Assembly (NCBI GenBank): GCA_965203275.1
Contig: OZ241865.1
Location: forward strand, 768,001 to 832,000
From: Bdellovibrionales bacterium
GTDB taxonomy: Bacteria; Bdellovibrionota; Bdellovibrionia; Bdellovibrionales; JAUICD01
Length of the DNA stretch: 64,000 bases
Direction of reading: 5' to 3'
This document shows positions 30,018 to 31,020 of the stretch, piece after piece. Positions within the stretch are counted from its first letter, which is position 1, and every line of letters begins with the position of its first letter. Position numbers and translations under genes: made by a program. The notes below the pieces were generated by a model, which was given only the letters and a program-made list of their open reading frames with translations, was not told the origin of the DNA and did not search any database.

Positions 30018-31020
30018 ATCTGGTATCCGGGATCCGGTATCTGGGATCCGGCAACCCGGCATCCCGGGATCCCGGGATCCGGCAACCCGGGATCCGGCAA
30101 CCCGGGATCCGGCAACCCGGCATCAAAAAGCACTTTTTCCTTAACATGGAGTTAAATGAGAAATGGATCCTCATTACTAAAAGTGGTCAGACAGCAAGCT
30201 TCTCTGAAGCTTGCCATGTAACAACACTAGGTGATGACCATTTTATCGACGTGAAATAAACATCTTGTTTCCTTAACATCGTGTAAAGAGACAAGAAGAT
30301 TCTTCCTACTAAAAATAAACGGATTTTTGAGGCAATCAGCCTTTGATCGACGGCGAGAGCCGTCGGGCTGATTGCCCAAAAACAGCCAGAGGCTGGTTTA
30401 TTTTTAGTGAAAGAGATAAGAAGGCGAGAGCCTTCGGCTGGCAACCAGAAAGTGACCAGAGGTCAGACCACTTTTAGTGAAACAGCTAACTCCCTAACCC
30501 CACCCACCGCCCTTCGATTCTGCTTTTTTATCTTATTTATGTATGAGTGGAATGCGGGGTCAGGCTTCCGAAGTCCTCAACCTTCGCTTGCTCTTGGGGA
30601 GCAAGCGGGTCTGCGGAAGATCTTCAGCCTGCCCCCGCCTCCCACTCATAATATTTATTTTTTGAAAGTTACACAGAATCTAAAAAAAATAAAAAAACAA
30701 AAAAAGAACTTTTTCCTTAACATCGTGTTCACCCGGGATCCGGGATCCGGCAACCGGCATCAGTTCCCGGTATGCCAGATTGCCGGATCCCAGATCCCGG
30801 ATCATGGGAGTGAATATAAATATCTTGTTTCCTTAACATGGAGTAAAAAAAACGAAGAGATCCTTACTTACTTAAAGTGAACAAGCTTTTGAGGCGATGA
30901 CCATTTTGTCAAAGGCGAAAGCCTTTGCGGTCATCGCCCAAAAGTGACCAGAGGTCAGTTCACTTTGAGTGAAACAGAGGCTAGTTCAATTTTAGGGAAA
31001 CAGACCACTTTTAGTGAATC
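30018..31020. repeat. Modular repeat cluster (long heptamer tract, A units, B module)
   Basis: Heptamers at 30018-30125; A units at 30308 and 30869; B module at 30491-30705. Confidence 0.95.

Follow-up and report, generated by a model that had tools for sequence, protein, structure and literature searches.

Stacked right ends of a three-way-junction repeat in a Bdellovibrionales genome: polar joints at unpaired sites and a tentative case for template switching

Hyper-abundant hairpin repeats without a known mobilizing enzyme are an old puzzle, represented by the CGTC class of REP sequences and by the small repeats of cyanobacteria. Here, we describe an intergenic, hairpin-forming repeat unit of ~147 nt in a Bdellovibrionales bacterium, whose right ends are found stacked one behind another, as at positions 30968-31018 of the window, i.e., the 64-kb stretch analyzed (bases 768001-832000 of a 2.57-Mb genome with 35% G+C, assembled as one contig, marker-gene completeness 90%). 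The closest described kinds are REP/BIME/REPIN mosaics, elements of the IS200/IS605 type, bacterial MITEs (miniature inverted-repeat transposable elements), and the small dispersed repeats (SDRs) of cyanobacteria.

Elements of the IS200/IS605 type have asymmetric ends with subterminal hairpins, act on single-stranded DNA (ssDNA), and leave no target duplication; they insert beside a short sequence resembling their own end, which favors head-to-tail arrays. Bacterial MITEs such as Correia, RPE, and ERIC measure 100-200 bp, lie between genes in hundreds of copies, and give folded transcripts. In E. coli, template switching at hairpins and quasipalindromes and the RecA-independent deletion of short repeats place their breakpoints at hairpin bases or loops, with 2-7 nt shared and no dedicated enzyme. 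The SDRs on which Elhai and colleagues wrote in 2008 reportedly nest inside one another and are said to be ~21-27 nt long. A passage of one article presents the SDRs of Nostocaceae as tiny repeats that are presumed mobile although no transposase has been identified for them, SDR5 having a preferred short insertion site, HIP1 (PMC5861425). Sections of another article describe the E. coli REP as bearing at one end the short tag GTAG, which is cut in single-stranded REP DNA by RAYT, and mention that some REP classes (CGTC) have no known transposase (PMC3733652).

The joints between stacked units in the present genome have a defined tail, a loop hotspot, a dependence on structure, an asymmetry of left and right, no target duplication, and a recent origin. 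We infer, tentatively, that the stacked right ends are joints made by hairpin-stalled, microhomology-guided template switching among the repeats. The original prediction for this DNA, made from its letters, had favored active mobilization over slippage; simple slippage duplication is indeed excluded (the fragment repeats its neighbor in 5/237 stacks), active mobilization by a defined cleavage is possible, and the genome yielded no candidate for the enzyme. The asymmetry would be accounted for at least equally well by joining that is based on replication and guided by structure.

A repeat profile built from 12 window copies and searched genome-wide (E < 1e-3) yielded 1537 matches, equally on both strands. 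A second, more sensitive pass, in which weaker overlapping matches were dropped, left 733 units of full length and three kinds of partial copy, namely right parts truncated at the 5' side (451), left parts truncated at the 3' side (345), and internal pieces (96); the nhmmer end coordinates may be off by a few bases. At least 6.2% of the genome is taken up by the family, and 97.5% of this lies outside frames of at least 120 aa, the longest such frames serving as crude gene calls. The unit is a selfish intergenic repeat that saturates the genome. Its parts are a left module (TTTCCTTAACATGGTGTTAA), a GAGGAGATCCTCC palindrome, and, in the folded single strand, a three-way junction in which a closing helix of 13 bp (P1) meets a long hairpin topped by a small apical one (P2) and a short hairpin with the loop AGA (P3); part of its right end is itself palindromic (CACTTTnAGTG). 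In an alignment of 48 sequences (29 window units and 19 units from G001, a sister species of the same genus, of which the first 400 kb of 2.94 Mb, i.e., 14%, were examined), compensatory changes occurred in 32 of the 42 predicted pairs, the P3 loop (A127, G128, A129) was invariant, and the flanking CC and GG were at least 90% conserved. Full units keep matched helices, in that P1 is complementary 6/6 in 73 of 75 and P3 hairpins are intact in 967 cases vs 29 with two strands from different variants; the latter are switches or crossovers within the loop. Rfam covariance models run over the 64-kb window at the gathering score detected two tRNAs only, leaving the repeat unit unmatched. The orientation of units relative to flanking genes has no notable bias, with 389 directed toward the downstream gene and 327 away.

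The stack at 30968-31018 (sequence of 30925-31020: ...AAAAGTGACC AGA GGTCAGTTCACTTTGAGTGAAA / CAGAGGCTAGTTCAATTTTAGGGAAA / CAGACCACTTTTAGTGAAT, where a slash denotes a joint, as below) and the nest adjoining it comprise the following features.

30824-30981, forward strand: complete repeat unit A (nhmmer model 3-158, E 1.3e-43) with left module TTTCCTTAACATGG, M2 palindrome, and P1/P2/P3 junction
30945-30957, forward strand: P3 hairpin of unit A, TGACC-AGA-GGTCA, read from the sequence, with the invariant loop AGA
30968-30978, forward strand: right terminus of unit A, AGTGAAA plus tail CAGA; the joint with the next piece lies within the shared CAGA
30975-31000, forward strand: fragment F1, the right-hand 26 nt of another variant (GGCTAG, TTCAATTTTAGGGAAA), from the P3 loop (nhmmer 30975-31006, model 126-157, E 3e-4 in a reduced database)
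31001-31018, forward strand: fragment F2 (CAGACCACTTTTAGTGAA), the terminal 18 nt of yet another variant, the third (a GGTCAGACCAC-type unit), from the P3'/P1' border
30133-30487, forward strand: true nest with host left part 30133-30251 (model 4-91), whole unit 30264-30416, and host right part 30420-30487 (model 88-156)

The three stacked right ends are thus present as predicted, in the form of a complete unit followed by two 5'-truncated right pieces of other variants. The F1 variant is found intact at 47208-47295, and the pair TTCAATTTTAGGGAA[AC]CAGACCACTTTTAGTGA occurs 4 times genome-wide along with several near variants (19-nt spacing); F2 was probably inherited together with F1 as a composite. 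This stack is not a nest, since no left half of either truncated unit lies upstream of it. In the adjoining nest, the host P1 arms GTGGTC and GACCAC are complementary 6/6.

The sharp right end that had been placed at AGTGAAA proved to be a defined terminus, the conserved part of which runs ~5 nt beyond that motif. AGTGAAA occurs 60 times in the window vs 18.9 ± 4.5 in shuffled sequences. Among 108 isolated units, conservation extends ~5 nt past the AGTGAAA-type motif (AG[T/G]GA, then A, A/C, C, A, and A/G, with a weak next A) before reaching background, and the same tail consensus, A-C-A-[A/G]-A, emerges from 1647 right ends and from the isolated units. CAGA follows 120 of 1545 genomic AGTGAAA sites, compared with 6.7 expected from its 4-mer frequency; the followers CAAA (168) and CAAC (116) are as frequent or more so. 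Free right ends, which have no recognizable module behind them, carry the tails CAAA (150), CAAC (105), and CAGA (37), and the G of CAGA is present in about a quarter of them; the "CA" of CAGA therefore belongs to the unit's own tail. The proposed preference for CA(GA) as a joining sequence is supported insofar as CAGA is enriched after the terminus, part of this CAGA being the unit's own tail. The 3' border tail AG[T/G]GA-ACA[A/G]A has CAGA in common with the invariant P3 loop (CC-AGA-GG), and the sister species and a second genus of the family likewise carry the tail ACAG. After 114 of the 1647 right ends stands ATGTTA, the mark of a subset of units that ends with an inverted left motif (AGTGAA-ATGTTAAGGAAA).

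Where a unit is resumed behind a right end, the restart falls at model positions 9, 40-41, 67, 74-76, 88-90, 103-104, 111-112, 125-127 (150 cases), and 130 (35 cases), all of which coincide with the starts of helix strands or with loops; the class with 19-nt spacing restarts where the P1 3' strand begins. Among 216 right ends with CAGA behind them, the continuation lies in the P3 loop for 165, at the P3'/P1' border (GGTCAGA/CCAC) for 13, and in a different, A-rich module starting CAGAATC for 5. None resumes at the CAGA sites of the P2 stem, CCAGAAAG (325 sites) and GTCAGAGCAA (185 sites), i.e., 0 of 510 are used, at which the per-site rate of the loop (967 intact P3 hairpins) leads one to expect ~55 and ~32 joints, respectively. 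A match to CAGA or CAGAG alone is thus insufficient and the site must be unpaired, which argues against plain microhomology deletion in duplex DNA and points to a joint-forming process that sees folded single strands. The P3 loop C-AGA-G, already suspected as a joining place, is by far the commonest site at which the right terminus abuts another unit, and microhomology deletions alone, which had been raised as the explanation that would undo that proposal, do not fit the 0 of 510 stem sites. In the sister species, two units (L025:8696-8869 and L024:5298-5474, both on the minus strand) have the same 14-nt insert in the P3 loop (CCAGAGG-CTCGCCTCGAGAGG-...), a tiny palindrome at the loop that is the hotspot in the present genome.

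Successive right-end motifs are spaced with peaks at 26 nt (110), 27 nt (110), 19 nt (53), 18 nt (9), and 43, 53, and 55 nt, and spacings of 144-147 nt correspond to whole tandem units. With a stack defined as successive right ends spaced 25-29 nt apart, there are 237 genome-wide; several of the joint and unit classes reported here were defined by regular expressions. The 12-nt arm of the fragment equals that of the preceding unit in 5 stacks (13.4 ± 3.4 upon shuffling), and local slippage duplication was rejected on this ground; among adjacent full-full unit pairs, 21 of 72 are identical (29%) and 51 differ. Across the 237 stacks there are 230 unique contexts and 132 distinct combinations of unit arm and fragment arm. 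In families whose units are at least 98.5% identical, one and the same unit has different fragments behind it. Each near-identical family prefers one host position, namely 103 in one family (8 of 14 copies), the P3 loop in two more, and 112 in a fourth, and this position matches the family's own tail, with ...ACAAACG leading to CGGTCAT at 103 and ...ACAGA to the P3 loop. About one fifth of the loop joints are without CAGA, and a complete tail (ACAAAC, AATGAC, CCAAAC) runs straight into the GG that opens the P3 3' strand in ~45 of 237 stacks, which points to structure rather than sequence. An extended likeness between AAAGTGACCAGAGG and the right end was rejected as the driver, GGTCAG-type fragments being under-represented (28 of 237 stacks vs ~23% of the top-14 arms). 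Stacks also occur in the independent assembly of the sister species, much more rarely than here (7 of 162 right-end motifs in 400 kb), and are therefore not an assembly artifact.

Whole units do sit inside others, but nests are a minority of the stacked ends. The arrays follow a grammar that runs from left parts through full units to right parts; what precedes a right part is a full unit or a further right part in 311 of the 451 cases, whereas a left part precedes it in 6. In 74 scorable triples of left part, full unit, and right part, the host P1 arms are perfectly complementary in 32 vs 11.8 by shuffling, and a bracket-style reduction reunites 35 host units vs 10.0 ± 2.4 in the control. The claim that the elements nest into each other is supported for these hosts and not for the remaining 416 of the 451 right parts, which have no matching left half; for 109 of the 193 right parts that start at the loop, no left part with a P1 arm exists anywhere upstream in the array.

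In the nests examined, the host is short of 3-20 nt to the left of the insert and nothing is duplicated; host ends and restarts lie near a diagonal with bases missing (77-83 to 88-90; 91-95 to 103-104; 100 to 112; 105-120 to 126). Host left parts end at ~48, 77-82, 91, 96, 100, 105, 110, 113, and 116-118, and the leaders before the inserted unit are heterogeneous, comprising a right-end remnant (AGTGAAATAAAC...), a remnant of the P2 3' strand (GGCTAACT), or the end of a heptamer module (CATCAGAAGG...). One such P2 3' strand remnant, GGGCTAACT...TTAGAAGGAT, travels with one unit family even beside hosts unable to pair with it, and the A[AG]GGA left leader has AG in front of it in 198 of 375 cases. 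The joints are polar, with a precise and recurrent right joint and a ragged left joint. A clean nest in the P3 loop, with both halves, is found at genome 569508-569700 (...GTAGCCAG / unit ...GAAACAG / AGGCTAG). Left halves with their end at the loop (...CCAG/) and foreign DNA beyond it amount to ~3 of 1049, a count partly read by eye, and there are 3 candidates for intact left joints; nested cut-and-paste into the P3 loop was rejected as a general explanation on these counts. A conservative, site-specific integration of circles at a CAG/A(A)GG core, an idea prompted by left leaders sharing AGAAGG, was likewise rejected, as the left joint that it predicts is almost never seen; right-end-to-left-end joints of this core type make up ~6 of 78 tandem linkers.

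The search for target-site duplications revealed none that was consistent, either in the nests or in 136 isolated units, among which a shared flank word of at least 6 nt occurred in 38 vs 27.4 ± 3.9 in shuffled sequences, with no fixed length or position. An internal control is provided by an IS256-family element at genome 432218-433617 (1400 bp, Transposase_mut), which is inserted in the apical hairpin of a unit, leaves both halves intact, and is flanked by an 8-bp duplication, GAGCCGTC; 7 copies of this element are 99.9-100% identical, and an eighth reaches 95.6%. A second multi-copy element measures 1969 bp and encodes a DDE_Tnp_1 transposase. The joining events are recent, in that a twin with at least 99.9% identity exists for 147 of 731 full units and units that are nearly the same are followed by different fragments; in 122 of 246 near-identical pairs, both flanks differ.

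Under template switching, the nascent strand would copy a unit from its 3' side and be displaced at a helix boundary, most often upon refolding of the P3 hairpin; the displaced end would then anneal anew, through a few bases, to another unit's single-stranded tail and copy that unit. A switch back to the first template would create a nest with a precise right joint, a ragged left joint, and a few host bases lost, and a strand that did not switch back would leave an orphan right fragment behind a complete unit. Later recombination among the more than 1500 copies could exchange flanks and separate halves, giving further orphan fragments. Such a process would explain why the joints are polar and depend on structure, why no duplication is seen, why the positions preferred by families match their tails, why upstream pieces are carried along, and why an enzyme is lacking. 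Several findings weigh against it. Loop-to-loop switches, for which 7 nt are shared, are rarer (29) than loop-to-tail joints, for which 4-5 nt are shared (165); the greater accessibility of the tail would explain this, which is an assumption. Many independent joints with one breakpoint on the unit side and varying host positions are the classical signature of a mobile element, the near-identical twins (147/731) and the pairs differing in both flanks (122/246) resemble bursts of transposition, and the conservation of the CCAGAGG loop and the ACAG tail across two genera would suit recognition by a protein. In addition, the ~45 tail-to-GG joints among the 237 stacks are essentially without microhomology, and neither a replication intermediate nor a replichore bias or strand bias of the units was seen; the GC skew is weak.

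Six-frame searches of the entire genome with Pfam profiles bear on the question of an enzyme. There were no matches to the Y1 transposase (PF01797; control matched in 6 of 14 genomes), the reverse transcriptase (PF00078; control matched in 3 of 14 genomes), the IS110-type/DEDD transposase (PF01548), TrwC (PF08751), or the Mob relaxase (PF03432); for the Y2 search (PF04986), the control matched in no genome. The TnpB domain is represented by a single 29-bit zinc-ribbon match within a 1365-aa frame, which is not a TnpB-sized gene, and there are two tyrosine recombinases only. Two window frames made of tandem repeats, at 7317-9779 and 60464-62377 (both on the plus strand; 820 and 637 aa; repeat period ~216 nt, or 72 aa, in the first), each start just downstream of an array of repeat units and have Pfam matches to HTH_Tnp_Tc3_2 and to HTH_Tnp_1 and HTH_23, with no catalytic domain. 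These could encode putative DNA-binding proteins related to the repeats.

An enzyme is central to the main rival reading, possible yet doubtful in our view, in which the unit is a non-autonomous mobile element and an unrecognized enzyme acting on folded ssDNA cleaves after CAG(A) in the 3' tail, does the same where CAGA is exposed (in the P3 loop, at the P3'/P1' border, and in other modules), and joins the right end there, the left joint being imprecise or later lost. The constant right terminus at varying host positions, the structure-dependent hotspot (165 loop joints vs 0 at stem CAGA), the invariance of loop and tail across species and genera, the many identical copies in different contexts, the clean P3-loop nest at genome 569508-569700, and the host halves reunited 35 times vs 10 expected all suit such an element, as do the AG before the left leader (198/375) and the missing target duplication, the latter a trait of IS200/IS605-type elements too. 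The genome, however, gave no match to Y1, IS110, TrwC/Mob relaxase, or reverse transcriptase, and its one TnpB-domain match is weak; loop-ending left halves (~3/1049) and candidate intact left joints (3) are scarce, hosts lose 3-20 nt in nests, the host position differs by unit family so that there is no single target, and ~1/5 of the loop joints lack CAGA. A bolder version, a new kind of single-strand mobile element in which an enzyme of an unrecognized family reads the three-way junction and cuts CAG/A in the tail as well as the exposed CAGA of other copies, seems rather unlikely; if true, the P3 loop would be the element's own landing pad, its spread would proceed by polar joining with the right joint precise and the left resolved by repair, and its growth from the few copies seen in a related genus to the more than 1500 of this genome would be explained. 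In another reading, a few ancestral junctions, arising from whatever illegitimate event, could have been spread by homologous recombination or gene conversion with crossovers in conserved blocks (the apical hairpin, CCAGAGG, AAAAG), so that most stacks would be inherited joints with shuffled partners rather than independent events. This is quite unlikely given the 132 distinct arm pairs and 230 unique contexts in 237 stacks, as well as fragments that diverge right after AGG and would confine the crossover to 7 nt or less; furthermore, crossovers in conserved blocks of similar length are rare, because full units keep matched helices (P1 73/75; chimeric P3 29 vs 967 intact). What it would explain is that GGGCTAACT-ATTAGAAGGAT stands before 5 of 8 near-identical copies beside host P2 5' strands that do not pair with it, that a composite of TTCAAT-unit and ACCAC-fragment recurs, and that P2 and P3 helices with chimeric strands exist, in a genome that has recA and whose synteny relative to the sister species is scrambled.

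Slippage or plain deletion at microhomologies within duplex tandem arrays, in which a deletion between the tail of A and a short repeat in B would turn [A][B] into [A][B-right], is disfavored and very unlikely. In its favor, the joints usually have CAGA in common, tandem arrays of differing variants exist (51 of 72 adjacent full-full pairs), and most right parts have no left half; against it, the CAGA/CAGAG of the P2 stem is never used (0/510), and the longer AGTGA match with AAAGTGACC is almost unused (25-nt spacing 3 times). Moreover, the fragment equals its neighbor in 2% of stacks vs 29% of tandem pairs, near-identical units carry different fragments, and matched split hosts exist. Hardly credible, finally, is the view that the stacked 26-nt modules have a function, either within a transcript or as an array bound by protein (for example, repeated operator-like TTCACTTTGAGTGAA palindromes), and are maintained by selection. 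It can point to the partly palindromic right end (CACTTTnAGTG) and to several right ends directly before a ribosome-binding site and start codon, but the lack of a gene-orientation bias (389 vs 327), the arbitrary fragment variants, the absence of an Rfam family match, and the rarity of stacks in the sister species, common as they are here, speak against it.

With regard to distribution, among 30 relatives the unit was found in the same-genus genome (72 profile matches in 400 kb) and in one genome of the second genus (7 BLAST matches), and in no others; 300 other genomes across the phylum gave no unit match (two candidates scored per genome), and an exact 28-nt flank had no match in metagenome contigs. 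Genes of the present genome and the sister species are ~64-81% identical at the nucleotide level, with synteny broken at almost every gene. The cumulative GC skew is nearly flat and the gene order relative to the sister species is almost wholly scrambled, which fits frequent rearrangement at repeats. Word searches of open-access text found no description of this repeat family in the literature.

The pattern of a right end followed by CAGA had also been listed for 7250, 9786-9820 (inverted), 20550, 35917, 47024, 47293, 47318, and 52129 of the window, and all 8 places display it; the continuation at 47024 and 47318 is CAGAATCTAAAAA, a different repeated module. The corresponding features are given below.

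7248-7283, forward strand: right end AGTGAACCAGA, then loop-start fragment GGCATGATGCATTTTGAGTGAAA (nhmmer 7254-7283, model 125-153), closing a three-unit tandem array
9784-9820, minus strand: stack of the same kind (nhmmer 9784-9813, model 126-155)
20544-20586, forward strand: right end and CAGAGAGGTGTGG... fragment, with truncated pieces upstream at 20423-20510 (from model 67) and 20511-20554 (from model 112)
35911-35936, forward strand: AGTGAAA right end, then CAGACCACTTTTAGTGAAA fragment, of the 19-nt spacing class
47287-47330, forward strand: AGGGAAA / CAGAGGTCAGTTTACTTTTAGTGAAA / CAGAATCTAAAA, a loop-start fragment (nhmmer 47293-47323, model 126-156) followed by a joint with the A-rich module starting CAGA
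52123-52176, forward strand: three successive right ends, AAGTGAAA / CAGACGGCATGATTTATTTTGAGTGAAA / AAGACCATTTTGAGTGAAA
12948-13023, 30006-30144, 50510-50601, 56584-56660, and many more: examples of the heptamer module

The heptamer module consists of tandem (CCGGGAT / CTGGGAT)n (here the slash separates alternatives), ends in GGCAACCCGGCATCAG, and is separate from the unit, the left end of which it very often directly precedes. Another repeated element occupies 30540-30640 and 30490-30530, with a long G+C-rich palindrome (GAATGCGGGGTCAGGCTTCCGAAG...CTTCAGCCTGCCCCCGCC) and the CCCTAACCCCACCCGCCACCCTTCGATTCTGC motif; this motif recurs directly behind unit right ends at many places in the genome. 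At genome 893174, 908248, 2025612, and other isolated units, a ribosome-binding site and start codon follow less than ~10 nt after the right end, AGTGAGAATAAAAGGAGGCGTTATGGCAG being seen three times in this context; by this position, such units form the 5' leader of genes. Housekeeping genes in the window include recA, dnaB, ligA, leuS, a murE-like gene, ppdK, and a purF-like gene. At E ≤ 0.001, Pfam matched none of three large frames, 31067-35371 (-), 43743-46649 (+), and 37717-39498 (-), the lengths of which are 1434, 968, and 593 aa. Minus-strand frames at 10508-10899 and 36070-36959 contain tandem 99-nt (33-aa) repeats, a period that would fit ankyrin-type repeats, and an 18-nt tandem repeat of ~22 copies at 11995-12390 lies within frames overlapping on both strands.

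The several hundred natural joints readable directly in this genome, being polar, placed at helix boundaries, and confined to unpaired CAGA where CAGA is used, turn the question of mobility or slippage into one of a structure-specific nuclease or hairpin-stalled template switching. Either answer would explain how the repeat grew to at least 6% of a 2.6-Mb genome and how the gene order of the lineage became scrambled. In comparison with the described systems, the unit resembles REP/BIME/REPIN sequences in its abundance between genes, single-strand folding, mosaics, and conserved short end tag. It differs in being a 147-nt three-way junction rather than a 20-40-nt palindrome or inverted doublet, in having its tag, CAGA, in a loop and the 3' tail with CCAGAGG and AGTGAAACA as conserved motifs instead of GTAG or CGTC, and in the lack of a RAYT (Y1_Tnp) gene in the genome. 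The missing target-site duplication is shared with elements derived from IS200/IS605, and further likenesses are asymmetric ends with subterminal hairpins, a process that would act on ssDNA, and joints beside a short stretch like the unit's own end. Unlike these, the present genome has no TnpA and only the weak zinc-ribbon match to TnpB, the left joint is ragged with host bases lost, at least 10 host end positions occur, AG precedes the leader in only 198 of 375 cases, and the insertion positions vary among unit families. Size, copy number, location, and folded transcripts recall bacterial MITEs, as does the subset of units with the inverted left motif at the right end (114/1647), whereas a MITE of the DDE type would not be expected to have its inverted terminal motif in a subset only or to lack a fixed-length duplication; of the two multi-copy transposons examined as cognate full-length elements, the IS256-family (GAGCTTGTCCC...) and DDE_Tnp_1 (CCTGAGTTTGACAG...) ends are unrelated to the unit. 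From SDRs, reportedly ~21-27 nt long, the unit is set apart by its 147 nt and three co-varying helices, and from the 5'-truncated copies derived from retroelements by the absence of a reverse transcriptase match in the genome. Breakpoints at hairpin bases and loops, with 2-7 nt in common, recall template switching as known from E. coli. In contrast to the latter, which makes point deletions at single loci, the present genome contains hundreds of joints between dispersed members of one family, including double switches that resemble insertions.

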